Origin: an uncultured Bacteroidia bacterium
Lineage (GTDB): Bacteria; Bacteroidota; Bacteroidia; Bacteroidales; CAJPTX01
Direction: 5' to 3'
NCBI GenBank assembly: GCA_963546395.1
Contig: CAUUMS010000004.1
Span: 73,635 to 137,634, forward strand
Length of the DNA stretch: 64,000 nucleotides
The position numbers were made by a program, and so were the translations under genes. Of this stretch, positions 6,747-32,692 are shown one piece after another. The notes under the pieces were generated by a model. It made no database searches. It worked only from the letters and a program-made list of their open reading frames with translations, and was not told the DNA's origin. The first letter of the stretch is position 1. The number at the start of each line of letters is the position of its first letter.

Positions 6747-6749
6747 GGC

Positions 6750-7202: not shown

Positions 7203-7225
7203 TTCATGTAGTTATTTTTACGACC

Positions 7226-7768: not shown

Positions 7769-7779
7769 TGCCACCTCCT

Positions 7780-7971
7780 TTAGTACAGCACGCGATAGAT
7801 CCAGTCCATCAAATGCTCGAACGACACATCCATGAGGAAGATGACTACCGCGATCAATAGGGAAGCTACCATGACTATTAATGCGCTAGACTGCAACTCC
7901 TTCCAGGTTGGCCAGGCCACCTTGTGGAGCATTTCATCATAGATATCACGCAGGTACCTCTTCAATCTCAT
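7780..7971 (-). CDS. secE: Preprotein translocase subunit SecE
   Basis: 63 aa from the internal ATG (MRLKRYLRDIYDEMLHKVAWPTWKELQSSALIVMVASLLIAVVIFLMD...) with a single TM. It lies between tRNA-Trp and nusG. The longer 104-aa ORF overlaps the tRNA and is rejected. Confidence 0.8.
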   Translation of the reverse strand: MRLKRYLRDIYDEMLHKVAWPTWKELQSSALIVMVASLLIAVVIFLMDVSFEHLMDWIYRVLY

Positions 7972-7984
7972 AGCTCGAAAAGCT

Positions 7985-8060
7985 TGGCACGGGAGGAGCG
8001 ACTCGAACGCCCGACACCTAGTTTTGGAGACTAGTGCTCTACCAACTGAGCTACACCCGT
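7985..8060 (-). tRNA. tRNA-Trp (anticodon CCA)
   Basis: Hand-folded cloverleaf: ...TAGCTCAGTTGGTAGAGC...CTAGT-CTCCAAA-ACTAG...GGGCGTTCGAGTCGCTC...GCCA. The 3' CCA is encoded. One mismatch in the acceptor stem. Confidence 0.88.
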
Positions 8061-8118
8061 CCGAAGGGCGATGCCCCGGCGGTGCCGCAAGCACCCACCG
8101 GGACAGTCCCCCACTACT

Positions 8119-9306
8119 TTACTGTAGGATTTCCACCACCTGGCCAGCACCTACCGTGCGACCGCCTTCGCGGATGGCGAAGCGGAGACCCGTGTTGATG
8201 GCCACCGGGTAGATGAGCTCTACCGAAATCGTCACGTTGTCACCCGGCATCACCATCTCGCGGCCTTCCGGCAGGGTGATCTCACCCGTCACGTCGAGCG
8301 TGCGGAGGTAGAACTGCGGACGGTACTTGTTGCGGAACGGCGTGTGACGACCGCCTTCCTCTTTCTTCAGCACGTACACCTCAGCCTTGAACTTGGTGTG
8401 AGGCGTGATGGTACCCGGCTTAGCCAACACCTGACCGCGCTTGATCTCATCCTTCTCAATACCGCGCAGCAGCAGCCCGACGTTGTCGCCAGCTTCCCCT
8501 TCGTCGAGGATCTTGCGGAACATCTCAACCCCGGTGCAGACCGTCTTCTTCTTCTCGGCGCCCAGACCCACGATCTCGAGCTCATCGCCCGTGTGGATAA
8601 CGCCCGTCTCAATCCTACCCGTCGCCACGGTACCACGACCCGTGATGGAGAACACGTCTTCCACCGGCATCAGGAACGGCTTTTCGTTCTCACGGGGAGG
8701 GATCGGGATGTACTCATCCACCGCATCCATCAGCTCCATCACCTTGTCAACCCACTGCGGTTCGCCGTTGAGGGCGCCGAGTGCCGAGCCGCGGATCACC
8801 GGGGTCTTATCGCCGTCGAACTTGTAGAAGTTCAGCAGGTCACGGATGTCCATCTCCACGAGATCGAGCATCTCGGGGTCGTCCACCTGGTCGCACTTGT
8901 TCATGAATACCACGATGCGGGGCACGTTCACCTGGCGGGCCAGCAGGATGTGCTCGCGCGTCTGGGGCATCGGGCCATCGGTAGCGGCCACCACGATGAT
9001 GGCACCGTCCATCTGCGCCGCCCCCGTAACCATGTTCTTTACATAGTCAGCGTGGCCAGGGCAGTCCACGTGCGCGTAGTGCCGAGCAGCAGTCTGGTAC
9101 TCTACGTGAGACGTGTTAATGGTGATCCCACGCTCCTTCTCCTCGGGCGCATTGTCAATCGAATCGAATGAACGAACCTCCGAGAGACCCTTGTCGGCCA
9201 ACACCTTGGTAATAGCCGCCGTAAGGGTCGTCTTCCCGTGATCCACGTGCCCAATCGTTCCGACGTTGACGTGGGGTTTTGACCTATCAAATTTCTCCTT
9301 TGCCAT
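8119..9306 (-). CDS. tuf: Elongation factor Tu
   Basis: 395 aa; [18 protein letters not shown] and NKCD GTPase motifs. Confidence 0.98.
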
Positions 9307-9364
9307 TGTTCGCTACCTTATTTACGATTATTCCGAAACCTCACCTCCCAGCACCTACTACACG

Positions 9365-9436
<72 letters not shown>

Positions 9437-9443
9437 ATGCGCG

Positions 9444-9516
9444 AGCGGGAGACGAGATTCGAACCCGCGACCCTCAGCTTGGAAGGCTGATGCTCTGCCA
9501 ACTGAGCTACTCCCGC
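9444..9516 (-). tRNA. tRNA-Gly (anticodon UCC)
   Basis: GCGGGAGTAGCTCAGTTGGCAGAGCATCAGCCTTCCAAGCTGA...GGTTCGAATC...CTCCCGCT. Confidence 0.9.
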
Positions 9517-9559
9517 GCAATCAACGGCACCAGCTGGTGCCCAAAACAAAACATTCGGG

Positions 9560-9642
9560 TGGGGAGAGCAGGATTCGAACCTACGAAGGCGTAAGCCAAC
9601 AGATTTACAGTCTGCCCCAGTTGACCGCTTTGGTATCTCCCC
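9560..9642 (-). tRNA. tRNA-Tyr (anticodon GUA, long variable arm)
   Basis: GGGGAGATACCAAAGCGGTCAACTGGGGCAGACTGTAAATCTGTTGGCTTACGCCTTCGTAGGTTCGAATCCTGCTCTCCCCA. Confidence 0.9.
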
Positions 9643-9682
9643 GTTTGTGCTATCGATAGCACCCTATCTCAAAGAACACCTG

Positions 9683-9756
9683 AGCCGATGGAGGGATTCG
9701 AACCCACGACCTGCTGATTACAAATCAGCTGCTCTAACCAGCTGAGCTACATCGGC
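9683..9756 (-). tRNA. tRNA-Thr (anticodon UGU)
   Basis: GCCGATGTAGCTCAGCTGGTTAGAGCAGCTGATTTGTAATCAGCAGGTCGTGGGTTCGAATCCCTCCATCGGCT. Confidence 0.9.
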
Positions 9757-9797
9757 GAGCCCATTGAGCCCCTCCAGGCTGCTCACGAATTGAGTGG

Positions 9798-9829
9798 CAA
9801 AGGTACAACTATTTTATGAACAAATCAAA
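9798..9829 (-). promoter_or_regulatory. Bacteroidota-type promoter (TTTG-N20-TACCTTTG) for the tRNA-tuf transcription unit
   Basis: On the minus strand the -7 box TACCTTTG is at 9805..9798 and the -33 TTTG at 9829..9826, with a 20-nt spacer. It lies 42 nt upstream of the tRNA-Thr(UGU) 5' end. It matches the published Bacteroides sigma-ABfr consensus TTTG/TAnnTTTG. Confidence 0.55.
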
Positions 9830-9877
9830 ACCTCTCCCCTCCAGCCCGTCATGATCGCGGGCATCACGCAGGTAAAA

Positions 9878-10171
9878 TCACCCCTGCGATTTCCCTTTGC
9901 GCTTCATCAGCTGGCGGCGCAACGCCTCTAGGGCATCGTCCACAGCCTCCTCGAAACTATCGGCCTGCTTCGAGGCGAAGAGCTCACCGCCGCGCAGTAA
10001 CAGCTTGATTTCGGCCACCTTGCGCTCCTCCTGCCCATTCTCTAGGCGCAGAAAAACCTCGGCCACCTCAATCTCGTCCTCAAAGCGGCGCAGCTTTTCC
10101 ACCTTCTGCTGCACAAACTCCATCAGCCTGGAGTGCGCGGTGAAACCTACCGACTGAATCTGTATTTTCAT
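9878..10171 (-). CDS. hpf: Ribosome hibernation/ribosome-associated inhibitor (HPF/RaiA family, short form)
   Basis: MKIQIQSVGFTAHSRLMEFVQQKVEKLRRFEDEI...EAVDDALEALRRQLMKRKGK is typical sigma54-modulation/S30EA family sequence. Start taken at the internal ATG; the ATG at 10180 is an alternative. The 135-aa ORF extension overlaps xerC. Confidence 0.8.
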   Translation of the reverse strand: MKIQIQSVGFTAHSRLMEFVQQKVEKLRRFEDEIEVAEVFLRLENGQEERKVAEIKLLLRGGELFASKQADSFEEAVDDALEALRRQLMKRKGKSQG

Positions 10172-10184
10172 TCCGTCCATAGTC

Positions 10185-11135
10185 CTACTCTTTGGCTTGA
10201 TTTTGCACTTCCATCCGCCGACTCCGGCCGTTGCCCTGCGCGTGGGGGTGGGCCTCGCGGTAGGCAGCCAGGAGCTGATCGACATCCACGTGGGTGTAGA
10301 TCTGGGTGGTCTGAAGGCTAGCGTGGCCCAGCAAGTCCTTAATGGTCACGATGTCGGCCCCACGACGCAACAGGTGGGTGGCAAAGGAGTGGCGAATCGT
10401 GTGCGGATTGTGATGCGTGGCCCTCGGGAGCCTCGACAGGTAGCTTCGCACCGTCGAATACACGAACGACCCGCTCACAGGCGCACCGTTATTATCCCGA
10501 AAAACATTCCCATCACCTCGCACGCCCAGCTCGCTCTCCAGCACCCTGCAGTAGCTCTCCAGCTCGCCCCTTAGTTCGTGTGTAACGGGCAGCAGCCGCT
10601 CCTTGTTACCCTTCCCCCGAACACGCACCATCATGGCCGGAAAGTCGAAATCGCTCCATCGCAAGCCCACCAGCTCCGCCCGGCGTAGCCCGAGCGTGTA
10701 GAGTGCTAGCAGCATGAGTCGATCCCGCTGCCCCTCTATCCCCGCGGGGTACTCCAGCTCATCGAGCAGGTGCGCCATATCCTCCTCCGGGATATAGCTG
10801 GGGAGCCGTCTTGCGGCCCGCTGGCGCGGCACCGTGGACACCGGGTTCGTGGCCCGCTCGCCCACCTGGCACAGGTAGCGGAAGTAGTAGCTAAGGCTCG
10901 AGAGGCGGCGATTCACCGATGCGGGCTCATGGCCAGCCTCCACCATGCTCATCACCCACCGGCGGACATCCCGATCGTCAGCCTGCCTGGATGCAACCCC
11001 CACGTCCTCGCCAGGGAACGCCTGATCGAGGAAACGCTGCACGTCGTTCACGTAGGCTTGCTGCGTGAGCGGCGAGTAACAGCGCTCGTACGTGAGGAAC
11101 TCGGCAAACTGCATCAGTAGATCGCCCGTGGGCAT
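10185..11135 (-). CDS. xerC: Tyrosine site-specific recombinase, XerC/XerD-like (housekeeping synteny partner of rpsU/hpf)
   Basis: N-terminal SAM-like core-binding domain (FAEFLTYERCYSPLTQQAYVNDVQRFL). Catalytic motifs RAELVGLRWSD, HTIRHSFATHLL and LGHASLQTTQIYTHV. The ORF-track start at 11153 is TTG; I prefer the ATG at 11135. Confidence 0.8.
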   Translation of the reverse strand: MPTGDLLMQFAEFLTYERCYSPLTQQAYVNDVQRFLDQAFPGEDVGVASRQADDRDVRRWVMSMVEAGHEPASVNRRLSSLSYYFRYLCQVGERATNPVSTVPRQRAARRLPSYIPEEDMAHLLDELEYPAGIEGQRDRLMLLALYTLGLRRAELVGLRWSDFDFPAMMVRVRGKGNKERLLPVTHELRGELESYCRVLESELGVRGDGNVFRDNNGAPVSGSFVYSTVRSYLSRLPRATHHNPHTIRHSFATHLLRRGADIVTIKDLLGHASLQTTQIYTHVDVDQLLAAYREAHPHAQGNGRSRRMEVQNQAKE

Positions 11136-11178
11136 ATATATCCTCCCTGTCAACCGGGGTCAGACGCCCCGGCAAAGA

Positions 11179-11857: not shown

Positions 11858-14800
11858 CTAAAGCTTCACGATGCGCACCACGCGCACGCCTCCGTCATGC
11901 GCCGTGAGACGCAGCACGTAGAGACCCGCGGGGGAAGACTGCATCTGAATCTCAATGGTGCTCTGGGTGTTGGAGCCGCTCTGCAACACCTGGCCCGCCA
12001 GGTTGAGCACCGCGTAGCGCGCCACCTGCTCGGCTTCCAGCACACGCAGCACGTCAGCGCAGGGGTTCGGGCCCACGGTAACACCCGCCAGCAGCGAGCT
12101 TTCCACGTCAGTCTTAGACGGCGGGTTGGGCTGCGGCTTCGGCTCGGGCTTGGGTTGCGGCTGAGGCTCAGGCTTGGCCTGCTGCTTCATGGTGGCCGCA
12201 ATTTCCGCATCGGCAGCTGGCATCGCAAAGCTGACCTTGCAAATGCCATCCTTATCCGGAGTAACCTCAGCAGCCTTGCCTGCTAGGGTGATGGATGCCA
12301 CCGCATAGCCAGCGTTCGGCGTAACAGTTACGTACACCATCGTCCCCTCGGTAACCTTGGAGCCAGTGGCAATCTCCTTCGTACCCTCAGCATCGCTGCT
12401 CACCTTCAGCATACCATTCTCAGGCTGCGTGTAGGTGAGAGTGTACTCAGGCTTCTTCGGCATCTCCTTCATGGTGGCAGCGATCTCCGCATCGGCAGCC
12501 GGCATCGCAAAGCTAGCCTTGCAAATGCCGTCCTTATCCGGAGTAACCTCGGCGGCCTTACCCGCAAGGGTGATGGTGGCCACCTCGTAGCCAGCACTTG
12601 GAGCGACGGTTACGTACACCATCGTCTCCTCGGCTACCTTGCTGCCCGTGGCAACCTCTTGCAGCCCTTCGGCATCACGGCTCACCTTCAGCACCCCATT
12701 CTCAGGCTGCGCGTAAGTGAGCGTGTGCTCGGGCTTCTGCGACTTCGCCCTCAGCGTGGCAACGATTTCCGCATCGCCCGCCGGCATCGCAAAGCTAGCC
12801 CTGGCAATGCCCTCCTTATCCAAGGTGATCGCTATGGGCTTGCCAGCCACAGTCAGGGAGGCCACCTCGTAGCCGTCGCTCGGCGTCACGGCCACGTACA
12901 CCTTCGTCTCCTCGGCCACCTTAGAGCCAGTGGCGATCTCCTTGGTACCCTTGGCATCGCTGCTCACGAGCAGTGCCCCATTCGCAGGCTGCGCGTAGGT
13001 GAGGGTGTGCTCGGGCATCGGGGCCTTGGGCTCCATGGCCATCGGCATCGGCATGTCGGCATCCTTCACCTCAAACGTCCCGTTCATGTCCTTGCAGTGC
13101 TCCTCGGTGATCGTGTAGAGGTACTTGCCCGCCTCTAGAGGCAATGCAAATACACCGGAGCCATCCGTCACCCCCTCGCCCACTTTCTTCTTGGTGGCAT
13201 CATCAGCCATCACCGTCACCGCAGCACCCGGGAGCGGATTCCCATTCATGGTGACGTTGAACGTAACCATAAAGGTTCCCTCCTTCGGGAGGATCCAGCC
13301 ATACCAGAGGTTATCGCTCGTGTTCCCGTCTTCCGCCGCACGATAGGCGGCTACGGCCGCTTGCAGCGCAACACCCGTCAGCTTGTTGCCAGAGGCATCC
13401 AACAGCACAAGGGTGCGACTGCTGGGGCAATCCTTAAAGGCCCCCTCATCCACATCATCCGGCGGCAGGGCAGGAAGCTCCATGGTCTTCAGCGCGGTGC
13501 ACCCAGCAAATGCGTCCGCATCCACCGCCGTGAGCATGGGCACATGAATCGTCGTAAGAGCCGTGCAGCCCTTGAAGGCACTATTACCAATTTCGGTAAC
13601 CTTCGGCAGGCGCAGTGCCGCCAGCGAGGTAGCACCGGCAAAGGCCTTCTCTTCCACCTTGGAGGCAGCGGGAATCTCAACGGTGGCGAGGGCCTTGCAA
13701 CCCTCGAACATATTCTGGGCCACGCCTTGCAGGACGGGGAACTTCGCCTCGGTGAGGGCCGTGCACCCCTTGAAGGTCTCAACGCTCGAGATGGTCACCG
13801 CAGGGAATTCCACGGTGGTTAGGCTGGTGCAGCCATCGAATGTGCCTGCCCCTAGGCTCGTCACCTTAGGTAGGCCAAACTTAACGAGGCTAGAGCACCC
13901 CTTGAAGGTATAATCACCAGACGAGGTGATGTTAAGGAGATCCATCTCCTTGAGGGCCGTACACCCCTCGAAGGTGCTGCTGCCAATCTGCACCAGCTTG
14001 GGGGCAACGACCTCGAGCAGGTGCTTGCTCCCCGCGAAGGTGGCCTTACCCATCTGCGTAACGTCGGGCAGAGAGATCTTCTTCAGCGCCATAGATTGGG
14101 CAAAGGCTTTATCGGCTACTCGGGTAATTTGAGCGATGCTCGCCGTCTCTACCGCAGCCTCGGTGAAGTACTGATTGGGCGGATCCAAGGTGAGCGGCAT
14201 CTCCACAAGGTAAGAAACCGTAGTCCCGATGGAAAACTCCTTGAGATTGGAGAAATCCTGAGAACCATCTGTGTAGAGTGCCAGAGGAAGCGAAATCCAG
14301 TCCTTCTCATGGAAGGAGCCACCCACGATGGCAATGCTCTTTACTTCCTTCTCCTTGTCATCGCCAAAGCCGGCCGCCGCAAGCGCCTTGGTCAGAGTCT
14401 CGCCCTCACCTTCCTTGGCGCCATTGACCTTTACCTTGATGGTGCTAGCCGCAAAGACCGCATGGATGGTGATGTCCGCTTTGGGCATGCTGAACTCGTT
14501 GTTCATGATGACGTGCTTCTCCGTGGAGCCCTTCTCGGTGTAGTAGAGCTCCATGATCCCCTTCCCGTCATCGGGACGCACCACAACCTGGACAGCCTGC
14601 CCTTCGGCACCGTACTGGCCGGCGTGAACACTACCGCCAGAGATGGCGGCATCCACCGTAATAGTATGCACGTCGGCCTTGGGGAGTTTCCACCCGTACC
14701 ATAGCCCATCACCAATCATGCCGTCAGGAGCGTCGTCATAGGCCTTGACAGCTTTTTCACGCTCATTCCCCTTGAGGGGCATACCAGTCTCATCCACTGG

Positions 14801-16522
14801 TACAAGCAAACGCATAGAAGGGCACTCGTCGAAAGCACCGCTGAGCACCTTAGGAGGCACGCTGCCCAGCTGTAGGCTGAAGAGCATCTTGCACTTGGCG
14901 AATGCGCCCATGCCGATTTCGGTGGCGTGGGGAAGCGTAGCACTCAGCAGGTTTTCGCAATCGTCGAAGCACTTGTCTCCCACCCTCGTCACGAGTGGCA
15001 AGTTGACCTGCGACAGGGCCTTACACAGAGAGACGGCCTCAGCCCCGAGCTCGAGCGTGTGAGGGAGCTCAAGCTTTGTGAGGAAGCTGAGGGAACGGAG
15101 CCCGCTATGAGGCACAGTGCGAAGCTTAGCCAGGTAGGCTTCAGTGATGCGAGGGTGCAGCTTGGAGCCGGTGACATCCATGTGGAGCTCGTGGTTCACC
15201 ACCTCATCTTTCACCCTGAAGATGCGGAGCCCATTGTACCCGTTGTTGAAACCGCCAGCATAGTTCGGCACGTTCTCGCGAAACTCGTAGAACTTCACGT
15301 AATCATCAGCCAGGAAGGCACCCTCTAGCACTTCAACTGTATGCACGGTGGGGAGGCCATCCGCAATAAGTTTGTCCTTCAGGATCTTGCCGTGGATGCC
15401 GGCAAAATCCTCGCCTTCAACATCGATCGCCTTCGACTGGTGATCCTTGTCGAGGGTAAAGCGCATTTTCAGCTTGTTGGGGACAAACTTCACCTCAGCC
15501 GTCACATCGTGCGCTGGCATGCTGAAGCAGTATGACTTCTTATCGATCTGCACTACCACAGAGGGTTCACCCGTCTTGTAGGCCTTAATGGAATTGACAT
15601 CCACCATGAACTTATTCGCCGGCTGAATGTTGAGGCACACCTCCGTGTTTTGCGTCACCGAGCCCGTGGGAATCGCAGACACGTTACCCTTATCTTTCTC
15701 GGTGCCCAGAACCATTACCTGGTAGAACTCTTCGGCCTCGAGGGCAAAAGCGTACCACCTCTTGTCCGACGTATTGCCGTCATCAACGGCCAGGTAGGCT
15801 TTCTCGGCCTTCGCCTTAGCCTCCCCCTCAAGTGGCTTACCATCCGGAGTTACCAGCTCGAGCATGGCCTCAGGCGATACCTGCTCTTTCCAGAAGTTGG
15901 CATCAACAGCTGTCGGGGGTACAGCACCCAGCTTGAGCGTTTCCAGGCCAGAACACTTGGCAAAGGCCTGAGTGCCAATTTTGGCCATCTTGGGGAAGCA
16001 CATGGTTTTCAGGCCGGTAAAGCCATCCATGCTCGGGGAATTCCCCTGGCCAGCAAAAGCAAACTCAGCCATCTCGGTGGCATCCAGGAACGTAACCTCC
16101 TCGAGAGAGCCATTCCTAGGGAAGGGGTTGGCTGGCACTGTGACAACCTTGGCAATGAAAAGCCGCTTCAGGGTGGGGAACTTGAACGGGTAGCAGCCAT
16201 TGCTGATGCCTGGCATGGGGTCAACCTTGGCCAGGGTGGTAGCCAGCGTGAGATCGGTAAGAGCCGATAGGTTTTCACTGTTCTCACTCAGCCAATTCCA
16301 GTCATTCGTTGTGAAATCGCCGCCGTTGAGCTCCAATTTCACGATAGATCCGACTGCCACGTCCTTGAGGGCCTCCTGGAGCGAGGGCTTCGCCTCGAAC
16401 TTCACGGGGGCAGCCCCACCGGTGAGCGTGTAGCTCCCCGAGAGATTGGCAGCGCGCACCAGCGGCACTGCGGCGACTATAGCCAACAGTGCTACAACTA
16501 GCCGACTTATAATGTACCTCAT
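11858..16522 (-). CDS. Giant surface protein: signal peptide, three BspA-type leucine-rich-repeat super-modules, 3x94-aa Listeria/Bacteroides-type repeats, Pro-rich linker, T9SS C-terminal domain
   Basis: Start taken at the ATG at 16522 (MRYIISRLVVALLAIVAAVPLVRA); the track start at 16534 is TTG. LRR_5/BspA-like units include AFAGSKHLLEVVAPKLVQIGSSTFEGCTALKEMDL..TFKGCSSLVKFGLPKVTSLGAGTFDGCTSLTTVEFP... Each LRR block is capped by a conserved ...AY..A.DGNTSD..WYGW.LP motif, seen three times. C-terminal sequence ...GPNPCADVLRV...AGLYVLRLTAHDGGVRVVRIVKL. Confidence 0.85.
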   Translation of the reverse strand: MRYIISRLVVALLAIVAAVPLVRAANLSGSYTLTGGAAPVKFEAKPSLQEALKDVAVGSIVKLELNGGDFTTNDWNWLSENSENLSALTDLTLATTLAKVDPMPGISNGCYPFKFPTLKRLFIAKVVTVPANPFPRNGSLEEVTFLDATEMAEFAFAGQGNSPSMDGFTGLKTMCFPKMAKIGTQAFAKCSGLETLKLGAVPPTAVDANFWKEQVSPEAMLELVTPDGKPLEGEAKAKAEKAYLAVDDGNTSDKRWYAFALEAEEFYQVMVLGTEKDKGNVSAIPTGSVTQNTEVCLNIQPANKFMVDVNSIKAYKTGEPSVVVQIDKKSYCFSMPAHDVTAEVKFVPNKLKMRFTLDKDHQSKAIDVEGEDFAGIHGKILKDKLIADGLPTVHTVEVLEGAFLADDYVKFYEFRENVPNYAGGFNNGYNGLRIFRVKDEVVNHELHMDVTGSKLHPRITEAYLAKLRTVPHSGLRSLSFLTKLELPHTLELGAEAVSLCKALSQVNLPLVTRVGDKCFDDCENLLSATLPHATEIGMGAFAKCKMLFSLQLGSVPPKVLSGAFDECPSMRLLVPVDETGMPLKGNEREKAVKAYDDAPDGMIGDGLWYGWKLPKADVHTITVDAAISGGSVHAGQYGAEGQAVQVVVRPDDGKGIMELYYTEKGSTEKHVIMNNEFSMPKADITIHAVFAASTIKVKVNGAKEGEGETLTKALAAAGFGDDKEKEVKSIAIVGGSFHEKDWISLPLALYTDGSQDFSNLKEFSIGTTVSYLVEMPLTLDPPNQYFTEAAVETASIAQITRVADKAFAQSMALKKISLPDVTQMGKATFAGSKHLLEVVAPKLVQIGSSTFEGCTALKEMDLLNITSSGDYTFKGCSSLVKFGLPKVTSLGAGTFDGCTSLTTVEFPAVTISSVETFKGCTALTEAKFPVLQGVAQNMFEGCKALATVEIPAASKVEEKAFAGATSLAALRLPKVTEIGNSAFKGCTALTTIHVPMLTAVDADAFAGCTALKTMELPALPPDDVDEGAFKDCPSSRTLVLLDASGNKLTGVALQAAVAAYRAAEDGNTSDNLWYGWILPKEGTFMVTFNVTMNGNPLPGAAVTVMADDATKKKVGEGVTDGSGVFALPLEAGKYLYTITEEHCKDMNGTFEVKDADMPMPMAMEPKAPMPEHTLTYAQPANGALLVSSDAKGTKEIATGSKVAEETKVYVAVTPSDGYEVASLTVAGKPIAITLDKEGIARASFAMPAGDAEIVATLRAKSQKPEHTLTYAQPENGVLKVSRDAEGLQEVATGSKVAEETMVYVTVAPSAGYEVATITLAGKAAEVTPDKDGICKASFAMPAADAEIAATMKEMPKKPEYTLTYTQPENGMLKVSSDAEGTKEIATGSKVTEGTMVYVTVTPNAGYAVASITLAGKAAEVTPDKDGICKVSFAMPAADAEIAATMKQQAKPEPQPQPKPEPKPQPNPPSKTDVESSLLAGVTVGPNPCADVLRVLEAEQVARYAVLNLAGQVLQSGSNTQSTIEIQMQSSPAGLYVLRLTAHDGGVRVVRIVKL
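11861..12100 (-). other. T9SS type-A C-terminal sorting domain (CTD) of the LRR protein
   Basis: Last 80 aa: ...VTVGPNPCADVLRVLEAEQVARYAVLNLAGQVLQSGSNTQSTIEIQMQSSPAGLYVLRLTAHDGGVRVVRIVKL. The pattern matches Por_Secre_tail/TIGR04183 (NP..d.l.v; G.Y.l.l; terminal K-hydrophobic). It is preceded by the linker KPEPQPQPKPEPKPQPNPP (12101..12172). Confidence 0.8.
12173..13015 (-). repeat. Three in-frame tandem coding repeats of ~282 bp (94/94/93 aa)
   Basis: Units at 12734..13015, 12452..12733 and 12173..12451. Each begins PE(H/Y)TLTY(A/T)QP.NG.L.VS.DA.G..E.ATGSKV.E.T.VYV.V.P..GY.VA..T.AGK...T.DK.GI..ASFAMPA.DAEI.AT. The DNA units are clearly alignable by eye, and the second and third are the most similar. 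Confidence 0.85.
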
Positions 16523-16562
16523 ACGACTAACCAATTAAAAAGTGAATACGGGATTAAACAAA

Positions 16563-16593
16563 GATCCCCGAGGCAAGAGATGCCCCGGGGATC
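16563..16593 (-). terminator. Hairpin terminator between the subtilase gene and the LRR gene
   Basis: 12-bp stem with one mismatch (gatccccgaggc/gccccggggatc) and a 7-nt loop. On the minus strand it is followed by TTTGTTTAAT. It lies 7 nt downstream of the stop at 16600. Confidence 0.55.
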
Positions 16594-16599: not shown

Positions 16600-19500
16600 T
16601 TACAGCTTCACAAAGCGAACTACGCGCGACAGGCGGCCTCGTTCGATTCGGAGCAGGTAGACACCCGCAGGTAGGGAGCGGACATCCAGCTGGGCATTAC
16701 CCTCGGCGGTGAATCGGGAGTAAACCTGCCCAACAGTCGAAATGATAGCTACCCGATCCCCTAGCTCTAGACCGTCCACATAGAGGTGATCCGCAACCGG
16801 GTTTGGACGAACTGTCAGGCTGAGCTGCGACTCCACTTCAGTATTCGGATCGTTCGGCTTGGGCTCAGGAGCCGGCGGATTGGGATCCTTCACGAAGGTT
16901 GCCACGAGCGAGAGATTGGCTGGCAGAGTCAGTTGGGCCCTCCGCATCGGGGTAGGCACCTTCTCACCGGTATCCTCACGCACAAGCCCCTTGAAAGTGT
17001 ATCCCTCTTTGGCCACGAACTGCATGTCAACCACGTCGCCCACGTCGAAGTGAGACTGGGGTGTCACGGCGCGTCCTTGGCAGGTCACGTTCATAGTGCC
17101 GCCCTCCTCGGGCTCTACGCGCCAGGTGAGCTTAGCCGGCTGGAAGTCCACTATGCTACGTGAAACGATAACCGCAGTGTGCTTCACGTCAGAAGTGGCC
17201 TCCTCGGCAGGACGCATCAGATCGGTGCTCCCATCCGAGAGCCAGTAGAGGAACTTGTAGCCCTCCATAGGCTCAACGGTGACGGGCTCGGTCATCTTTC
17301 CACCCTCTATCCACTGCTCGGTCACGTAGTCATCACCCTTCCGGAAACGGGCAGCTCCCACAATGGTGGACTCGTAGGTCACGTGCATAGAGGCGCTGCT
17401 CATGAAATGGGCCACCAGGTCGGCGCTCTTCTGCACTGGCGTAGCGGGCCGACGGGGCGTTGTGGCACCATCGCTCCAACGGGCGAACTTGAAGCCCTCG
17501 TAGGGCACAGCATCCACGGGCTGCCCCGATGTGCCATAGGGCAACTCCTCGGTGGCTATGGGCGAGCCATTCTGCAAGACGCGGCCAGCTGTGGGCGGAT
17601 CCGCCTTGTAGGTCAGGGTCACCTTAGGCTCACCCGTCACGAAAATGCTCACATTGTCCACCAGGGCCCAGTAGCTCCACTTGCTGGCGTAGCGAATGCG
17701 GAACTGAACGTAAGGCTTGCCAACAAGCTCACTCTTATCGAGCAGTCGGTTGAGATTCCAACGGTAGGTCATCGAGGTGATTTTGCCACCGAGGACTTTC
17801 CAACCGTCGCCGCAGTCGTACTCCAGGAAGAGGTTTGCACGCTCTTCCGTGTGGTCGCGGAACACGAGGTCGAATGCCACCGTAAGGCCACGCTTGGCAG
17901 CCGCCTCAGGCACCGTGAAACGCGGGGTGTACAGCGTCGATTCAAAGTCGGCCTTCGTCTCCCTATCGGAGTCAACCACCATGAAGTAGCCATCGAGGTG
18001 ATCGCCGAGGGTACGTGGGCTCTTGGAGATAAGCCATGGCTGCGCATAGCGACCGTTCATAGCAGTGGCCCACTCCTCGGGGAGTTTCGCCCCCTCGAAG
18101 TCGCACACGTACGGTATGGTGAGCATGCGACGGAAGAGGGCTGTGACATCCTTCGATGCCGTCACCTTCGTTTCCGTACGCTCACGCTCAGTAATCCCAT
18201 CGCTCCAAGCCACGAAGTAGAAGCCATCGGCAGGCTTCGCCACAACCTTCGAGCCATCGCCCTCAAACGCTACCTCCTGCTGAGCCTCGCCCTCAATGGA
18301 GCCATTGGCCCCGGCACTGTAGCGCAACGTGTAGTGCTTGCGAGCAAATTTGGCCGTGAACGACTTGTCTGCCTTCTCGGCCACGTCAGAGCGAGGATTG
18401 TCGGTTTTGCCATCATCCCACCCCTGGAAATCGAAGCCTACCTTGGCCTGAGCGAAGACAGGGAGCCCCGTCTGGCCTTCAGCTAGCAGCTGAGACTGCT
18501 TCCCGAAAAGGGTACCGCCATCGCCGTCCACCTTATAGGTGAGCGTCACCGTGGTAGCCACGAGATCAATCTCTACGCGCTCGTCGGCCTGCTTAATGTC
18601 CACAGAGCCCTTCTGGGTGCTGTACCCGGCTTTTGAAGCGGCGTAAGAGGATGTGGCATTCTCCTTCACAGGCATTGTAACCATGCCATCAGCACCCGTC
18701 ATATAGGCCCGGCCATTTACCATCACCTCGGCATTCTCCAACGGACTCGCATTGGCACGCACCAGGATAGTGAGCTGGTACATGTCGCCCTGGGTAACGG
18801 TGAACTCACCACCCACAGGTGTTACGGTGTAGTTACCCACCTGGTACGGAGCATGCTTTGCTGCTATCGTGTACATCCCCTTTGCCAGCGGGCCACGAGC
18901 CGGATCGACAACCTGGCCGTTCTGCTTAATCTCAAAATCGCCATGGCGATACGGATGGGGCATAAGGGCACGGTGGTTGGGCTCTACGAGACCCTCATAC
19001 TCAAACGTCCAGGGGATATTGTGCCCATAGGGTACCTCCTTAACGGTGGGCTTCACCTTCACTGGCTTAGGCTTAACCTCAATGCTCTTGGTCAGCGTAG
19101 CAGACGCAGCATAGCCCTTTGCCGCAGGCTGCACGGCCGTGATGGTCGCAGTACCAACGCCACCGATGTAGAGACGCTCGGCATTCACAGAGACCACATT
19201 CGGTGCTGTGGAGCTGCTCACGACAGGATTCTTCGCCTTGGAGGCAGATACAAACTCCAGGGCTACAGACTCGGCACCGTACTCGTAGCTCGCCGCAGGT
19301 TCTGTCCAAGTGAGGGACTGCGACTGCTCTAGGCGCAACGTGTAGGTGTGCTTAGAACGCTTGTTAGCCGCCGTCACCACAAGCAGACGGATGTCCGAGA
19401 GGTCTATCTCGCTGTTATCCTCAATGGCCTTGGGCCCACCCTGCGAGAGCACCGCAAGGGTGGCACCCGCAGACCTGGTAAACGTTACCTTAGCCTTCGT

Positions 19501-22500
19501 CGCATCAGCCAACGTGCCATGCGTGGCGGCATTGAGCGAGAAGAGAACGCCATCCGTGGTAATTGTGGCTGCGACATCCGCCTTGAGACCTGGGTTATCA
19601 TCCTTCTTCAGGGTAGCCCCCGTGAGCTCGCAGGCAGCCGAAGCCTCATTCATCGCCGTGAACTTGACCTCCTGCTCGAGCTTGACACCAAAGATCTCGA
19701 GCTCGGCCTTAATCACCACCGTCTTGTTGGCACTGAAGTCAAATTCGGTATCCTTTGTGACCTCTTTCCCCTCATAGAACAACTTCGTATGGGGCCAAGT
19801 GGTGAAGAACTCCGCATCCTTTATCTTGGAGAGGTCAGTCCCCTCGGGGAATACCACCTTGATAGAGCCGTCAGCCTGCTTGGAGTCATGCACCTGCAAT
19901 TTGAACATGCTACCTACAAGGAGCGACTGCCGCGGATCACGCCATACGCACTTGTCAGAGGCCGGAATACGTTCGGGACGCGTGAGTAGAAGACCCAGGT
20001 GCTCCTGATTCTTGAACTTGTGCGGCTGCGCAGCGGCACTGCCAGGGCCGTCATTGAATGGGAATTCATCGATCAGCCCTTCGGGCGGATTATTTTTCCA
20101 ATCCTTCCGCACGTGCTTGAACATGTTGGCGGAGATTTCCTGCGGCTTCAGCGCACGAGACCACATACGGAACTCGTCAATCATGCCGTGGAAACGCGTC
20201 ATCAGGTGTATAGCACCCTTCAGGGAGGGGGCATCCCGCCCTTCAGAGGCCGTAGCAACCTTCTGACCATCCAGGTACATGGTGATCTCGCAGTTGCTTG
20301 TGCCCTGGAATTGCCCTACCTCGATCTTCTCTACCACGACGGCCAGATGGTGCCAACGCCCTGGCTTCACAAGGTCGGCACTAGGATTCTGGGTGTACAC
20401 TACCGCACCATTACCGATCAGGGCTATCAGGCCATTATCCTTAACCTGCTTGGCAGCCATATTATAGGTGGTGGCAATGCGGAGTCCCTGCATGGAGATG
20501 AGCTCACCGTACTGACGCACTGTGGGATTAAACCAGAGCTCCATGGTGAAGGCACCTTTACTACCCCTTGGGATACTCTTCCACAGCTCAAGTGCAGAGG
20601 CCTCAATCTCCACCGCATCGTAAAGCGTCTTCTTCCCATCGGGAGATGCCTCCGGGGTAGAGCTGAGCACCCACTCGCCAGCAGATGTCGGATTGTCAAG
20701 GATCTTGAAGAGCGTGGTCGCCATCTCATTGTTATCAGGCTTGCCCAGGCCATCGAGCTCCTTGATCACCACCTTGATGGTATGAGGCCCCAACTCAGAG
20801 AGATCGGCTTTGCCACCCGTCAACATGATGTTCTTGTAGCCACTCCAAGCATTCAGCTGGTCATTCACCGTTACGGTTTCAGTCCACTCGTTCTTACCAT
20901 CCACGGTGCATGTAGCCTGGAATTTACCCGACCACTTGATGTGTGAAACATTGGTCACCGTGATCCACACAGACTCTTTATCCGTGAACGACTTGCTAAC
21001 CTTCGAGCCACCCTTGGCAGGATCCGATACGCCCACGTAGGTCAGGGAGAGATCGCCTGCCAACGGATTCTTACCCGGCTTGATCACCAGGATGTAATCG
21101 CGCATGTAGGCATTCTCCGTAAGCTCCTTAGCGCACACCGTGGCTACATCAGCTGACCTCGTGCTATAGAGCGCACGCAGACGATAATTGCCCGGCTCGT
21201 GGCCCGTGGCATCCACCGTGAAGGGGAGCTTGCCGGGAGTCTTAGTGATGTCGACTCTCGCATCAAGTATCTGCTCGCTCTCCGCATCGAAGGTGCCGTC
21301 ATTATTCCAGTCGACCCAAATCTTCGTGTGGGCAAACTTCTCGTGCTCTACATCGCTGAGCTCCACAGAGGACACGCCATCGCCCTGGAAGATCTGGATG
21401 GGCTTGTCCATGAAGTTGATAGTACGATCGACACCCGCCTTCCACTGCGGGATGCAATAGCGGTCGTACACCATCCACGTGAAGAACTTGTTGTCGGCCA
21501 TTGTGCCATCCTGCGCAATAAGATCGATTCGCAGCTTCTTCGCCGTACGCATGGGGACTCCCTTAATCTTCTGCAGAATGGTGAACGTGTCTACCCCAAG
21601 CGGAATATTCTGGAGGATCTGCTGTGCCGGGAGGCGGAACCCATCAGCTACGCGAATCAGGGCCCTGGGCACCAACTTCTTGGTGTTATTGCGGATAGAG
21701 ACCTTCACGGGCACATCAGCCGTGGGGGTATCGCCCGTGTGCTGAATCGTTGCGCCGAGCAGAGACAGAGGATTGCTCGCGGGCACAAGATCCACCTCGG
21801 CCACCCAACCCTCAGCACCTTCCTCTCGGTCATCCGACTGGAAGAAGAAGCGCAGCGAGCCATCCTCCGAGCCCGACACGTACGTCTGCCCATCGATAGT
21901 AGCCGTCAAATCATCGTCCAGCTGGTCGACAGGCAGCTCATCATCCGTCTTCTCCCAGGCATTCAGGTTGGTGTACACGTCGAGAATCCCGAGCTCCTTC
22001 TTCGTGTTGAACTTACGGAACACCGCACGAACCTTCATGGACGGATCCTCGGGCTCAAAGGTGATAGTCGACTTTTGATCCTTGCCATAGTCGCCCAGCA
22101 ACCCGCTATTGTCAGTGAAGATCCGCTTACGCTTCCCAATCGTGTAGCGAAGGTTAGGATCCTGCGCATTCTGCCGAGGATCGAGCTCACGTGGCAGGTA
22201 GAAGGAGGTCGGCATGGGGATTACGTCGCCGTAATTTCGCACTGTAGCCTCAGCGTGATTATCCTGCGGGTAGACATCGCCAGGGCATACCACATCGAAA
22301 GCCACGTGGCGCACAGCCCCCTCGGGCTTGCTCACGCTAAGGTCGAGCGGGAACATCATGCTTATCTCATCGTAGGGCAGCAGCTTCTCAATACGCTTGC
22401 TAGCCTTCCAAGCCCCATCGACGTAAGCATTCACCTCCAGGTTCTTCTCCTCACGGATGCTACCATTCACGAAAGTCAGCTTGAAATCGCTCACCCCAAG

Positions 22501-29026: not shown

Positions 29027-30809
29027 AGGCCCCATCACCGCCTGCATTAACCCCACGCGTACTCCCCCTGAGGGCAGTGGCAGGGCAAGGGCTTTGCTCC
29101 CCCGTGGGGTATGGAGGCTCGGGGTAAATCCCATCCCCAGCAGGGGTTACCATCGTACGTGGTTGCACAGGAGTAAAAGTGCTATCGAGCAGGCTCCGGC
29201 TGCGATCCATACCCCCGTAGCGCACCCGCACCAAATCGAGCAGCGTGTGGAACGTGCACGTCGTCTGGATGGGCAATCCCTTGTGGCTAGCTAGTATGGA
29301 ATCCTGGCGGGGGAAGGCAGCCCGGTACTCAGGCGAGAGCCACACCAGGAAAGGCACGTGAGCCGTGTAATGGCTCGGCCTCGCATTGCAGTGCAAGATC
29401 TCCTGGTTGGCATCGTCGTACAGATTCTCCCCATGGTCGGCCACGTAGAGGAGAAATGCTGGCCGGTGCGTACGCTCCAGAATGCCGATGAGCGAATCGA
29501 GCATCATGTCCGTGTATGCGATGGTATTATCGAACGAATTCACAAACACCTCACGCCGAGACGGATCTGGCAGCTGATTGAACCCTTCTACGCTCCGCGA
29601 CAGCTCGGGCTTAAACTGGGCAAACGATTCGGGGTACCGCTCGGTATACTGAAAGTGTCCTCCATAGGGGTGGAGCACAAGGAATCCCGGGCCCTGCACC
29701 GTATCGACAAACTGCTTGGCGTGCGGCAATAGCACCCCGTCATAGGGTGTACGCTTGGGGAATCGAGCGTCGATTTGCAGCGTGCTCGTGCAGGCTCTCA
29801 TGGCGAGCGAGCTCCACAGCTCGTAGGTCTGCAACGTCACCCACTGTTGCACCAGCCCCGCACGGTTGAGCACCTCGGTGAGGAACGGCTCCTGCATCCA
29901 CCGCGCCTCATCGGCTGGCGTGCTCGTTGACACCAGCATCGGGGCCGCAACCACCGTGCAGTTCGACGGGCTATAGGCATCCGGGAAGAAATACACATCC
30001 CCCCGCTTCGATAGGCGTGGATTCGTGGGCCTCTCGTAGCCCGCTAGCTGCCAGTTGCACGCACGGGATGTCTCACCAATGACAAGCACCCCCAGCACCG
30101 GAACCGTATCAAGATGCTCCACACCCTCAATGGGCATACTTGCGCGCTGCGCTAGAATCTGCTGCGTGCTAGCCTGCTGCGACTGAAAGCGCATGGTATA
30201 CAGGGCAGTCTTCAGCGTGGGAACCCCGCCCACAACTATGCGCAGCACCTCCTTGTACTGACGAATACCGCCCTCCAGCTTCCCCTCACCAGGCGCAAAA
30301 CGGATGGCCACAAGGGGAGCGCACACGCCGCAAGCCCCGAGAATGAGGAGCCAGCGGATGCGCCGACGAAACAGGTAAAACCGAGCCGGAAAGCAACGGA
30401 ACGAGAGCACGAAATAGGCAACGAGGGCCAGCACGTAGAGCAGGGCTGGGAGCCAGTACACCTGAATCTGCCCTGCGGCAGCCCCCCACCCCGTGGTGCG
30501 CATAGAGCTGTACAACGTGTACGTAAGCGGCTCGCCGATGGAGAGCCAGCTCGCAAGCTCAAACAGGCACAGCAACCACGTGACCCCACCCAGCACCATC
30601 CACCAGCGCACGGGCAAAACGACGGCCGGCACCATCAGCAGCACAAGCCCCACCACGCACTGGGTGGCCACAATGCCCCACGGCACGGCCTGATGCGCCA
30701 TGGAATTAATCAGCAGGAACGTGGGGACGAGATTAATCGCAATCAGCACCACCAGGAGCAACCACTGCCCCCACGTGGCGTGCTGCTGCGCACTCCGATT
30801 TCTACTCAT
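29010..30809 (-). CDS. Phosphoethanolamine transferase, EptA/sulfatase family (paralogue 1)
   Basis: Polytopic N-terminal membrane region followed by an alkaline-phosphatase-fold domain. LVIGETSRACNW matches the GETxRA nucleophile-Thr motif of EptA/LptA/MCR. YVADHGENL is the metal-binding motif. The 3' end overlaps dtd convergently by 17 nt. Confidence 0.75.
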   Translation of the reverse strand: MSRNRSAQQHATWGQWLLLVVLIAINLVPTFLLINSMAHQAVPWGIVATQCVVGLVLLMVPAVVLPVRWWMVLGGVTWLLCLFELASWLSIGEPLTYTLYSSMRTTGWGAAAGQIQVYWLPALLYVLALVAYFVLSFRCFPARFYLFRRRIRWLLILGACGVCAPLVAIRFAPGEGKLEGGIRQYKEVLRIVVGGVPTLKTALYTMRFQSQQASTQQILAQRASMPIEGVEHLDTVPVLGVLVIGETSRACNWQLAGYERPTNPRLSKRGDVYFFPDAYSPSNCTVVAAPMLVSTSTPADEARWMQEPFLTEVLNRAGLVQQWVTLQTYELWSSLAMRACTSTLQIDARFPKRTPYDGVLLPHAKQFVDTVQGPGFLVLHPYGGHFQYTERYPESFAQFKPELSRSVEGFNQLPDPSRREVFVNSFDNTIAYTDMMLDSLIGILERTHRPAFLLYVADHGENLYDDANQEILHCNARPSHYTAHVPFLVWLSPEYRAAFPRQDSILASHKGLPIQTTCTFHTLLDLVRVRYGGMDRSRSLLDSTFTPVQPRTMVTPAGDGIYPEPPYPTGEQSPCPATALRGSTRGVNAGGDGASTDPR

Positions 30810-30841: not shown

Positions 30842-32692
30842 CTAGGAACCCGAGCCCTCGTCATTGTCAATCTGGCAACCGTAATACCCGCTGACAACCA
30901 GGGACAAGCTGTCGCGCAGCCGCTGCTCATTCTTCGGGTACCCCGGCTCGGGATGAAGACTCCCATCGGGATTGAGCATCATGCGTGGACGCATGGGGGC
31001 AAACGTGCTGTCAATCAGGCTACGACCTGGATCCATGCCCCTGTATCGCACCCCGGCCAGGTCGAGCACCGTGTGGTAGGTGCACGTCGTCTGGATGGGC
31101 AAATACCGATGGCTATTCAAGATGGAATCCTGGCGAGGGAAAGCGGCTCGATACTCGGGCGAGAGCCACACCAGGTAAGGTACATGCGCCTCGTAGTGCG
31201 TGGGTTTCGCGCTGGCGTGCAACAGACCCACGTCGGACGCATCGAACAGATTCTCCCCGTGATCGGCCACGTAGAGCATGAAGGCCGGTCGCCCCAGACC
31301 CGCAAGATACGACACGATCGAGTCAAGCACCATATCGGTATAAACGATGGTGTTATCGAACGAATTGACCAGCAGATCACGGTGCTCCGGGTTGAGCTGC
31401 ATGTACTCAGAGGCCGAACGCCCCAGCTCGGGGGTAAAGGTGCTGTAGGACGGCGTGTAACGGTCGATATAGTTGAAATGCCCACCGTAGGTGTGCACCA
31501 CGAGCATCGTGTTCCCCTTCGATGATGTCAGGAAGTTGCGCACAAATGGCAACAACTTCTCATCCAGCGGCACGGGGTTCGGGAAGCTGTAGTCTAGCAC
31601 GTGCGTGTAGTCGCATGGTGCCATGGAGAGCACGGCCCATGGATTCTGCGTGCTCTGCAAGGTGATCCACCCCGTGCGGAAACCTGCCTGGCTGAAGACC
31701 TCCGTCAAGAAGGGTTGCCGCATCCACGCATCCTTATCCTGCGGCGTGGCCGGTGACACCAGCATCGGGGCCGACAGTATGGTGTAATTGGCACCGCTGT
31801 AGGCATCGGAGAAAAAGTAGAGCCCCTCGCGCTGAGACAGGCGTGGATTCGTGGCACGCTCGTAGCCCGCCAGCTGCCAGTTGCACGCGCGGGACGTCTC
31901 GCCAATCACCAGTACCCCCACCACTGGGACAGTGTCACTGGTGCGAATCAGCCCTTCCACCTGGGGCATCCCCCGCTGCGCCAGCACCCGCTTTGTGCTA
32001 GCCTGCGCCTTCTGGTAGGCCACGGTGTGCCGCAGCACATCGAATGGGTAGGTTCCGTTAATGAGCCCCTTGAGGGCGGAATGGTACTGGCGTTCGATGA
32101 AGAACTTCCAATCGCACTTCTCCTCCGAACCACGGGCAATGAGCAGCGGCAGGCAAGCCATCACCACGAGCAGCACGGGCAATGCGGCTACACGGAATCG
32201 CACCGACAAGCGCACCCCCCGGGGGGCAAAGCGGAACAGGAGCACGAAGTAGAGCAGCAGGGCCACCACATAGCCCACGGTGGGCACTAGGTAGGCCCTG
32301 AGCTGTCCCAGCGACTCCCCTAGCGTGGTGGCACGGATAGAGCTGTAGATGGCGTAGTTCAGCGGCTCGCCGATAGAGAACCAGCTCGTGAGCTCGATGG
32401 GCAAAAGCAGCAGCAGCAACCCCTCAAGGAAGAGCCAGCCCCGCAACGGGAGCACCAGCAACGGCACCAACAGGAGCACGAGCACCATGCCCAGCTGCGC
32501 CACCGCGTAGCCCAACCCCAGCGCTGCCAGATGCCGCACTAGAAGCATGTTGGGCAACAGGACGAACAGCAACATCAGGCACGTCACCACAAGGCCGACA
32601 GGCGACATCCCCCGCCGATGGTGTCTTCGCCTCACCCGTTTGGCCGATGCGTTCCGGCACTGATTACGATTTCCCAGGCCTGTGCACCCCAT
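30842..32692 (-). CDS. Phosphoethanolamine transferase, EptA/sulfatase family (paralogue 2, tandem duplicate)
   Basis: Same architecture and motifs as paralogue 1 (LVIGETSRACNWQLAGYERATNPRL, YVADHGENLFD, VWLSPEYRAAFPRQDSIL identical to paralogue 1). An alternative start is the ATG at 32608 (MSPVGLVV...). Confidence 0.75.
   Translation of the reverse strand: MGCTGLGNRNQCRNASAKRVRRRHHRRGMSPVGLVVTCLMLLFVLLPNMLLVRHLAALGLGYAVAQLGMVLVLLLVPLLVLPLRGWLFLEGLLLLLLPIELTSWFSIGEPLNYAIYSSIRATTLGESLGQLRAYLVPTVGYVVALLLYFVLLFRFAPRGVRLSVRFRVAALPVLLVVMACLPLLIARGSEEKCDWKFFIERQYHSALKGLINGTYPFDVLRHTVAYQKAQASTKRVLAQRGMPQVEGLIRTSDTVPVVGVLVIGETSRACNWQLAGYERATNPRLSQREGLYFFSDAYSGANYTILSAPMLVSPATPQDKDAWMRQPFLTEVFSQAGFRTGWITLQSTQNPWAVLSMAPCDYTHVLDYSFPNPVPLDEKLLPFVRNFLTSSKGNTMLVVHTYGGHFNYIDRYTPSYSTFTPELGRSASEYMQLNPEHRDLLVNSFDNTIVYTDMVLDSIVSYLAGLGRPAFMLYVADHGENLFDASDVGLLHASAKPTHYEAHVPYLVWLSPEYRAAFPRQDSILNSHRYLPIQTTCTYHTVLDLAGVRYRGMDPGRSLIDSTFAPMRPRMMLNPDGSLHPEPGYPKNEQRLRDSLSLVVSGYYGCQIDNDEGSGS

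Follow-up and report, generated by a model that had tools for sequence, protein, structure and literature searches.

The stretch of DNA analysed here, referred to below as the window, comprises 64,000 nucleotides of contig CAUUMS010000004.1 (positions 73,635 to 137,634, forward strand; assembly GCA_963546395.1) from an uncultured Bacteroidia bacterium of the order Bacteroidales, and its G+C content is approximately 58%. Our subject is a single giant gene on its minus strand (16600..25683), the predicted product of which is a subtilase carrying a long series of adhesin-type modules and a type IX secretion system (T9SS) C-terminal sorting domain (CTD), and which belongs to a conserved family of such proteins with many paralogues in an oral lineage. 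The longest mechanical open reading frame (ORF) extends over 16600..25821 (minus strand, TTG start, 3073 amino acids (aa)), and a start at the ATG at 25683 yields a protein of 3027 aa with the N-terminus MQSMRRVVSRLLLLVVLASAWLGLQA followed by QEQ (MQSMRR...). An earlier annotation made from the DNA letters and their translations (hereafter the sequence-only reading) had described one uninterrupted ORF of about 9.1 kb and 3027 aa, and both its coordinates and its length were borne out. A very long ORF with repeated module types in metagenome-type sequence could in principle be a collapsed-repeat chimera, or else a decaying gene, and the chimera had been named beforehand as a possibility to be checked. 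That explanation is effectively refuted: direct DNA repeats inside the ORF do not exceed 33 nt, the frame is unbroken, the catalytic residues are invariant and the protein lines up colinearly with those of more than 90 homologue clusters. The 90%-identity cluster of the product has 13 members (ENA, NCBI, JGI and Logan), eight of which are exactly 3027 aa long, so that a product of identical length is present in at least eight independent assemblies from four sources, and independent assemblies yield it at 99% identity. Since internal repeats above 33 nt are lacking and the same product has been assembled repeatedly, the ORF is a real gene.

The gene is bordered by hairpins. A terminator-like hairpin on the minus strand (16563..16593; 13-bp stem with 9 G-C pairs, followed by TTTGTTT) starts 7 nt past the stop codon, and a perfect 17-nt hairpin at 26259-26297 lies just past the stop of the upstream chemoreceptor gene, of which it is presumably the terminator. 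TAnnTTTG is the consensus of the Bacteroidetes promoter -7 element, and a pattern search located a candidate box of this type, TATGTTTG, at 25819..25826 (minus), starting 143 nt upstream of the ATG. Owing to the hairpins on both sides and the box upstream, the subtilase gene looks like a transcription unit of its own. A sigma-70 promoter scan was set aside, as it gave fewer sites than expected by chance and the sigma-70 model is not applicable to Bacteroidota. A phase-variation switch was also considered and dropped, no convincing inverted repeats being found around the promoter region; a XerC/D-like tyrosine recombinase is encoded at 10185..11153, and there was no sign in the window of its acting on the subtilase promoter.

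The first 26 residues (25606..25683, minus) form a predicted Sec signal peptide, and judged by eye it has a basic n-region (R5, R6 and R10), a hydrophobic core and an A-x-A-like cleavage region. In Bacteroidetes, a glutamine commonly follows the signal peptide cleavage site (the "Q-rule"). The predicted cleavage between A26 and Q27 fits this rule, because Q27 at the +1 position is invariant in 39 aligned homologues (alignment A1), and the signal peptide of the sequence-only reading is thereby upheld. It is followed by a family-conserved N-terminal pro-region of about 210 residues (aa 27-235; 24979..25605, minus), which by analogy with the KP-43-subfamily T9SS peptidases probably acts as a folding or inhibitory propeptide (PMC11982257).

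The S8 catalytic domain occupies aa 236-525 (24109..24978, minus). The Pfam profile PF00082 (Peptidase_S8) scores 95 bits over aa 274-518 (cutoff 21.8), and in the homologues the match extends over profile positions 1-288. The catalytic residues are D250 in IWDGN, H278 in HGTHVAG and S464 in GTSMACP, with N383 as the oxyanion asparagine; H278, N383 and S464 align with the active-site motifs of KP-43 (Protein Data Bank (PDB) chain 1wmd). None of the 95 aligned proteins (the query and 94 full-length homologues of 26-47% identity) has lost a triad residue, and N383 does not vary in the 39-sequence alignment, so the complete active site recognised by eye in the sequence-only reading holds throughout the family. 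By its order of triad residues, its motifs and its profile score, the sequence is assigned to the S8 (subtilase) family. Immediately behind lies a domain resembling the C-terminal beta-barrel of KP-43, or a PPC domain (aa 530-652; 23728..24096, minus). The best PDB matches of the protein are 1wmd (KP-43) and 5fax (SubHal), which pair aa 277-650 with chain residues 67-428 of 434 (E 1e-17 for the query on its own, 6.5e-42 for the family profile), and Pfam PPC matches in homologues fall on query positions 546-640. At the sequence level the protease head is thus of the KP-43 type, with the barrel directly following the catalytic domain, and it is the most conserved part of the whole protein in the full-length family alignment.

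The long remainder of the protein is a tail of beta-rich modules. Direct Pfam matches on the query are GEVED, Laminin_G_3 and Flg_new_2 (InlB B-repeats; 71.9 against a cutoff of 23.6). Pfam scans of ten unannotated query segments at E values up to 5 gave almost nothing, and no CUB, CARDB or MAM; the full-length family profile, when searched against the PDB, was swamped by subtilisin matches. The segment aa 645-1310 was approached through homologues and models, its AlphaFold2 model from a 22-sequence alignment being nearly all beta-strand (mean predicted local distance difference test score, pLDDT, 86.8). The sequence-only reading had found no known motif in aa 710-1300, and this view has to be given up: with AlphaFold2, hhalign and Foldseek the region resolves into five ordinary beta-sandwich modules. 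The first is an immunoglobulin (Ig)-like beta sandwich (aa 662-756; 23416..23700, minus) seen in the model, and the second an Fn3-like domain (aa 759-856; 23116..23409, minus), called from the model and a weak profile match to titin Fn3. The third is a jelly roll of the CBM4/CBM22/MAM/ephrin-receptor type (aa 866-1041; 22561..23088, minus; single-domain pLDDT 95.7, likewise nearly all beta-strand), followed by a CARDB-like domain (aa 1047-1156; 22216..22545, minus), with weak PDB profile matches to the three chains 2l0d, 2kl6 and 3idu, which we take to be CARDB-type domains. The fifth is a CUB-like domain (aa 1174-1304; 21772..22164, minus), a beta sandwich in the model, to which Pfam CUB matches above cutoff in homologues P0070 and P0071 are transferred (query 1212-1295 in two alignments). 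Foldseek with the five domains together returned complement C5, alpha-2-macroglobulin and strings of Fn3 domains at template modelling (TM) scores of about 0.13; this was not read as kinship with alpha-2-macroglobulin, since such matches are those of generic beta-sandwich arrays.

Further along the tail there is a second CARDB-like domain (aa 1306-1412; 21448..21768, minus), on which a Pfam CARDB match of homologue P0043 falls (query 1323-1386), then the GEVED domain (aa 1413-1535; 21079..21447, minus; PF20009, 35.4 bits against 24.4, match 1453-1531) and a third CARDB-like domain (aa 1536-1672; 20668..21078, minus). The family sub-profiles 1045-1158, 1306-1412 and 1536-1672 are mutually homologous (hhalign probability 98%), and therefore three CARDB-like domains are counted. 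The LamG, or concanavalin-A-like lectin, domain follows (aa 1680-1855; 20119..20646, minus; PF13385 at aa 1709-1851 with 54.7 bits against 27.6). The stretch aa 1856-2205 (19069..20118, minus) seems to hold three to four small Ig-like modules (DUF6242/cadherin-like and Big_2-like). A Pfam census of 13 homologue segments gave DUF6242 in eight, Big_2 in two and Cadherin-like in two, and the profile matches the first ~100 residues of the glycoside-hydrolase chains 4het and 4jrl; on the query itself all Pfam matches here are under the curated cutoffs. An MBG_2-like module (aa 2206-2298) and a CarboxypepD_reg-like module (aa 2299-2378) share 18550..19068 (minus) and are called from homologue matches above cutoff, those on the query itself being weak (E 0.09 and 0.017, respectively). 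Two InlB B-repeats, also known as Listeria-Bacteroides repeats, come next (aa 2379-2520; 18124..18549, minus; PF18998; hhalign probability 99.9% to each other), and three to four more, together with a Pro-rich linker, precede the CTD (aa 2688-2950; 16834..17622, minus; PF18998, PF09479 and hhalign), which makes five or six in total. Between the two groups of repeats lies a second putative jelly roll, of the choice-of-anchor-J/MAM-like type (aa 2521-2687; 17623..18123, minus). Here the query sequence alone gave no match; NCBIfam NF038128 (choice-of-anchor J) matches seven of 23 homologue segments (best E 6.8e-10), MAM, Reelin-B and F5/8C matches in these segments are weak, and the profile finds reelin (E 0.004), the Kgp chain 3m1h (E 0.1) and the neuropilin-2 chain 7t4s (E 0.12) in the PDB. 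Reelin_subrepeat-B matches in homologues were rejected as support, as they could be mapped to the query through neither alignment, and the MAM-like call accordingly rests on the segment census. The module order given in the sequence-only reading (S8, CUB, CARDB, GEVED, LamG, MAM-like, Listeria/Bacteroides repeats, CTD) was thus correct; S8, GEVED, LamG and the repeats are seen directly in Pfam, whereas CUB, CARDB and MAM emerge through homologues, profiles or the model.

The jelly rolls and the lectin fold raise the question of what the tail might bind. One answer would be a glycan-directed protease, in which carbohydrate binding by the CBM4/MAM-like, LamG, CUB and choice-of-anchor-J modules delivers the protease to glycoproteins; the targets would then be mucin or other glycoproteins, or bacterial polysaccharides, and paralogues would differ in glycan specificity. 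The top Foldseek matches of aa 866-1041 are indeed CBM4 and CBM22, LamG has the concanavalin-A-like lectin fold, and aa 2521-2687 shows weak matches of the CBM32 and F5/8C type. However, the matches of aa 866-1041 also include the MAM domains of neuropilin and meprin and Eph ligand-binding domains, all at E values of 3e-5 to 1e-3, TM scores of only 0.45-0.56 and identities of 5-14%, and MAM, ephrin-receptor ligand-binding and CUB folds bind proteins equally often. We regard both this mode of action and the glycan targets proposed for it as quite improbable.

At its C-terminus the protein carries a T9SS type A sorting domain (aa 2951-3027; 16603..16833, minus), which TIGR04183 recognises with 32.6 bits against a cutoff of 23, in accordance with the CTD noted by eye in the sequence-only reading. 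PNP (2960-2962), G3007 and K3026 are at least 90% conserved and Y3009 is invariant (alignment A1). Two more CTD proteins are encoded inside the window, a BspA-type leucine-rich repeat (LRR) protein and a C25 gingipain-like protein, and the paper on Candidatus [Bacteroides] periocalifornicus (below, Ca. B. periocalifornicus) mentions T9SS-targeted gingipain (C25) domains; it is for these reasons that the presence of a T9SS in the genome is assumed. The distant family member P0015 (Balneicella halophila, 4479 aa) has a CHU_C (type B) T9SS CTD instead of type A, and the subtilase family is therefore not bound to one CTD type.

Among 5.8 billion proteins searched, 340 relatives were found. Of the cluster representatives, more than 90, with lengths of 2.7-3.9 thousand residues, cover at least 90% of the query at 26-47% identity with the same Pfam set, and in the full-length alignment the occupancy is at least 0.72 in each 50-residue block, except in the Pro-rich linker before the CTD. 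A profile of the segment that follows the protease head (the stalk) was searched alone against 1.84 billion representatives. As the totals of this search were inflated by unrelated giant Ig/CUB-array proteins with 20-50 matching stretches each, colinear matches only were counted, and a hand count found the stalk in the corresponding place (about aa 620-1300) in approximately 78 of the best 150 proteins; the remaining top matches were the unrelated arrays. Hosts of the family include Balneicella halophila, Ancylomarina, metagenome-assembled genomes (MAGs) of Bacteroidales and Rikenellaceae, and Ca. B. periocalifornicus, and in Chitinophagaceae proteins the similarity is confined to aa ~65-850. 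The "mosaic" of unusual order and size proposed in the sequence-only reading is thus contradicted by more than 90 homologue clusters in which the whole architecture is fixed and runs colinearly. That reading had also held that abundant, already characterised homologues of the same architecture would speak against it: abundant they are, but characterised they are not, and databases name them "S8 family serine peptidase", "InlB B-repeat-containing protein" or "hypothetical". Judged from these sequences, the protein is a member of a conserved, database-annotated and uncharacterised family and no unique mosaic. A layout of some 3000 residues that stayed fixed when the sequences drifted to ~30% identity speaks for a defined molecular machine and against a mere loose chain of sticky domains.

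The family is strongly expanded in one lineage. A scan of genome contigs with the single query protein gave no matches, and with the family alignment 204 relatives were found in the GTDB species genomes. A catalytic-motif search pattern undercounted paralogues and was replaced by tblastn of the protease head; copies were taken as distinct heads by contig position and are minimum counts. The draft genome of Ca. B. periocalifornicus has at least 14, the related MAGs CAJPTC01 and CAUTNK01 at least 10 each, CAJPTS01 at least eight, CAUVMY01 and JABCOB02 at least seven each and CBDEMG01 at least six; other Bacteroidales MAGs have one or two. The copies are frequently adjacent (loci L008-L066). Ca. 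B. periocalifornicus, an oral bacterium that is associated with periodontitis and has not been cultured, has a genome of 2.53 Mb and 59.4% G+C (PMC6275135), of which 14 genes of ~9.5 kb would by arithmetic make up roughly 5%. Its protein KQM08664.1 falls into a homologue cluster, and the representative of this cluster shares 33% identity with the query. The literature found on this organism makes no mention of subtilases or of their multiple copies. For the source species itself, the end of the window (59090..64000, 4.9 kb) is 97.3% identical to contig k119_10241 of ENA ERZ27279287 (403,871 bp; locus L002), on which the C25 gene is followed by M20, L19 and glutamate dehydrogenase genes and then, a few kb beyond the equivalent of the window end, by two giant S8 family members of 3557 and 3219 aa, arranged divergently. 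Going by this contig, the source species has two more family copies just past the window end. What the present analysis adds to the sequence-only reading is this combination of a fixed architecture of three thousand residues with a strong multiplication of paralogues in an oral lineage that is uncultured and associated with disease.

Several known proteases can be compared with the query. SpBcA and SpBcB of Bergeyella cardium are KP-43-subfamily peptidases with a T9SS CTD, which cleave off their own propeptide, one that runs through the active site, and SpBcA degrades fibrinogen, gelatin and LL-37 (PMC11982257). They share with the query a Sec signal, a pro-region, the KP-43-type S8 domain with its beta-sandwich, adhesin-type modules and the T9SS CTD; the adhesin-type module is choice-of-anchor J in SpBcB and SpBcC and a cleaved-adhesin domain in SpBcA (PMC11982257). 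In both cases there are paralogues within one genome, three there as opposed to 6-14 or more here. The Bergeyella proteins differ in having a PKD domain and one adhesin-type module in place of ~20 modules, and the SpBcA propeptide extends to about residue 103, compared with ~210 residues before the catalytic domain in the query, a comparison made by description only. KP-43 of Bacillus sp. KSM-KP43 (1wmd) and SubHal (5fax) have in common with the query the motifs HGTHVAG, GNE and GTSMA and the barrel motifs LVNDLDL and RNN.E.V; their solved chains of 433-434 residues are, in contrast, from Gram-positive Bacillus and have neither the T9SS CTD nor the ~2400-residue tail.

The gingipains RgpA and Kgp of Porphyromonas gingivalis are, like the query, T9SS cargo proteases with a type A CTD from an oral peptide-fermenting source. 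Their tandem adhesin (cleaved-adhesin/K-domain) jelly rolls may be set beside aa 2521-2687, for which the Kgp match is the weak one given above, but their protease domain is a C25 cysteine protease instead of S8, and the module set and the size differ. PF01364 (C25) gave no match in the Pfam scan of the query, and the C25 protein of the genome is a separate ORF, 59584..63528 (+), with a propeptide, a CarboxypepD_reg domain and a T9SS CTD. Lactococcal PrtP and streptococcal ScpA are also large S8 enzymes with an N-terminal protease and a C-terminal surface anchor; they have Fn3-like spacer domains and serve in protein foraging or immune evasion. Weak PDB matches around the Ser motif of the query are to chains 3eif, 1xf1 and 31mr. 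PrtP and ScpA, however, carry a sortase anchor of the LPXTG type and a PA domain inserted in the catalytic domain, neither of which is seen in the query: the NCBIfam models of LPXTG-anchored serine peptidases score 33.8 against 1400, far below cutoff, and the whole-protein Pfam scan found no PA domain. The Gram-positive cell-envelope proteinases may thus serve as an analogy and not as a family to which the query would belong.

The reading that we favour, with a probability of about 0.6, is that the gene encodes the ~334-kDa precursor of a T9SS cargo protease, surface-held or released, which is auto-activating and forages protein. The secreted or surface protease with lectin- and adhesin-like modules pictured in the sequence-only reading agrees with the intact active site, the KP-43-type head, the CTD and the all-beta tail, and the modules may, as was also proposed there, target it to specific substrates or to host or partner surfaces. 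The export route, the surface attachment, the auto-activation and the substrates are drawn by analogy. The precursor would be exported by Sec, with signal peptidase I cutting before Q27, and the pro-region would occlude the active site while the precursor folds in the periplasm. The exported cargo would consist of the KP-43-type head and, behind it, ~20 beta-sandwich modules in a fixed series, and the type A CTD would direct its passage over the outer membrane through the T9SS. The CTD would then be removed and the new C-terminus attached to the cell surface (lipopolysaccharide), or the protein released, and the pro-region would be cut off, probably by the protease itself. As the anchor is at the C-terminus, the protease would form the distal end of the molecule. 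It would probably degrade proteins outside the cell, from food and from the host, on behalf of a peptide-fermenting oral Bacteroidia bacterium; the tail would give reach and binding, and the divergent paralogues a range of binding or substrate specificities. The S46, C1-like and C25 peptidase genes in the window support a proteolytic lifestyle.

Several observations weigh against this reading. The Pfam CTD profile PF18962 scores 26.5 against a cutoff of 27 and is thus marginally, by 0.5 bit, short of it, and T9SS machinery genes are absent from the 64-kb window. For the pro-region, neither a Pfam match nor any similarity to known propeptides was detected. The binding-type folds of the tail give nothing definite on its ligands. 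Furthermore, the predicted TM score (pTM) of the five-domain segment aa 645-1310 is 0.68, due to which the tail may be partly compact and the geometry of a "protease at a distance" is uncertain.

The gene next to the subtilase offers another view of the family. Directly downstream (11858..16534, minus) lies the gene for the BspA-type LRR protein, 1558 aa long, with InlB B-repeats, a CarboxypepD_reg-like domain and its T9SS CTD. The pairing is kept in all five orthologue loci of ~46% identity (L001, L004, L005, L006 and L011), some orthologue loci holding two BspA-type LRR genes. Together with the share of the protein taken up by adhesin-type modules (~80%) and the many divergent paralogues per genome, which fit surface variation, this would suit a mainly structural surface fibril, adhesin or coat component, in which the protease does no more than mature itself or process partners such as the LRR neighbour. 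Yet paralogues outside the orthologue group have no LRR neighbour, and the strong terminator stands between the subtilase and LRR genes. Moreover, the head is the best conserved part and the triad is intact in the 94 homologues, which would be unexpected if one cleavage were all that is needed, and SpBcA and SpBcB are active proteases, the former degrading several host proteins (PMC11982257). A mainly structural role is in our view unlikely, and the protein-foraging cargo protease remains the preferred interpretation.

The remaining genes of the window are of more general kinds. An S46 dipeptidyl peptidase (40959..43115, minus) and a C1-like peptidase of the aminopeptidase C type (43211..44419, minus) adjoin each other, and the pair is consistent with a peptide-fermenting lifestyle. 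Two methyl-accepting chemotaxis proteins are encoded at 26317..28119 and 45782..47917 (both minus), one of them with a HAMP domain; the related Ca. B. periocalifornicus is reported to carry CheA/B/R/W/Y (PMC6275135). Two tandem proteins of ~600 aa (29010..30809 and 30842..32692, both minus) have a sulfatase-family domain from residue ~240-260 onward, and the N-terminal parts of both have no Pfam match; the same applies to a 311-aa ORF at 36381..37316 (+). A conserved housekeeping block at 1090..11153 contains rpoB, L10, L1, nusG, tRNA-Trp, tuf and four tRNAs (Thr, Gly, Tyr, Thr), and ends with the XerC/D-like recombinase gene.

For the single gene taken alone, the outcome is mostly that a protein of a known kind has been annotated with care, with an "unknown" region that turned out to be ordinary. 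What is unusual is the share of a small genome that is spent on one family of giant subtilases, in a lineage that is uncultured and of which the single described member has been linked to periodontitis. In oral Bacteroidota, proteases secreted by the T9SS, among them the gingipains, are central to both virulence and feeding. As a speculation, which we consider unlikely, the at least 14 divergent subtilases of ~300 kDa may form the principal surface layer of the cell, a brush of protease-tipped fibrils of fixed architecture, each with its own binding specificity, which together would be the main feeding and host-damaging apparatus and a counterpart of the gingipains built on a different protease. 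If they are surface-expressed, these proteins would be candidates for the main antigens and the main degradative enzymes of the lineage, and they would also be candidate detection markers and a test case for how the T9SS handles cargo of more than 300 kDa.

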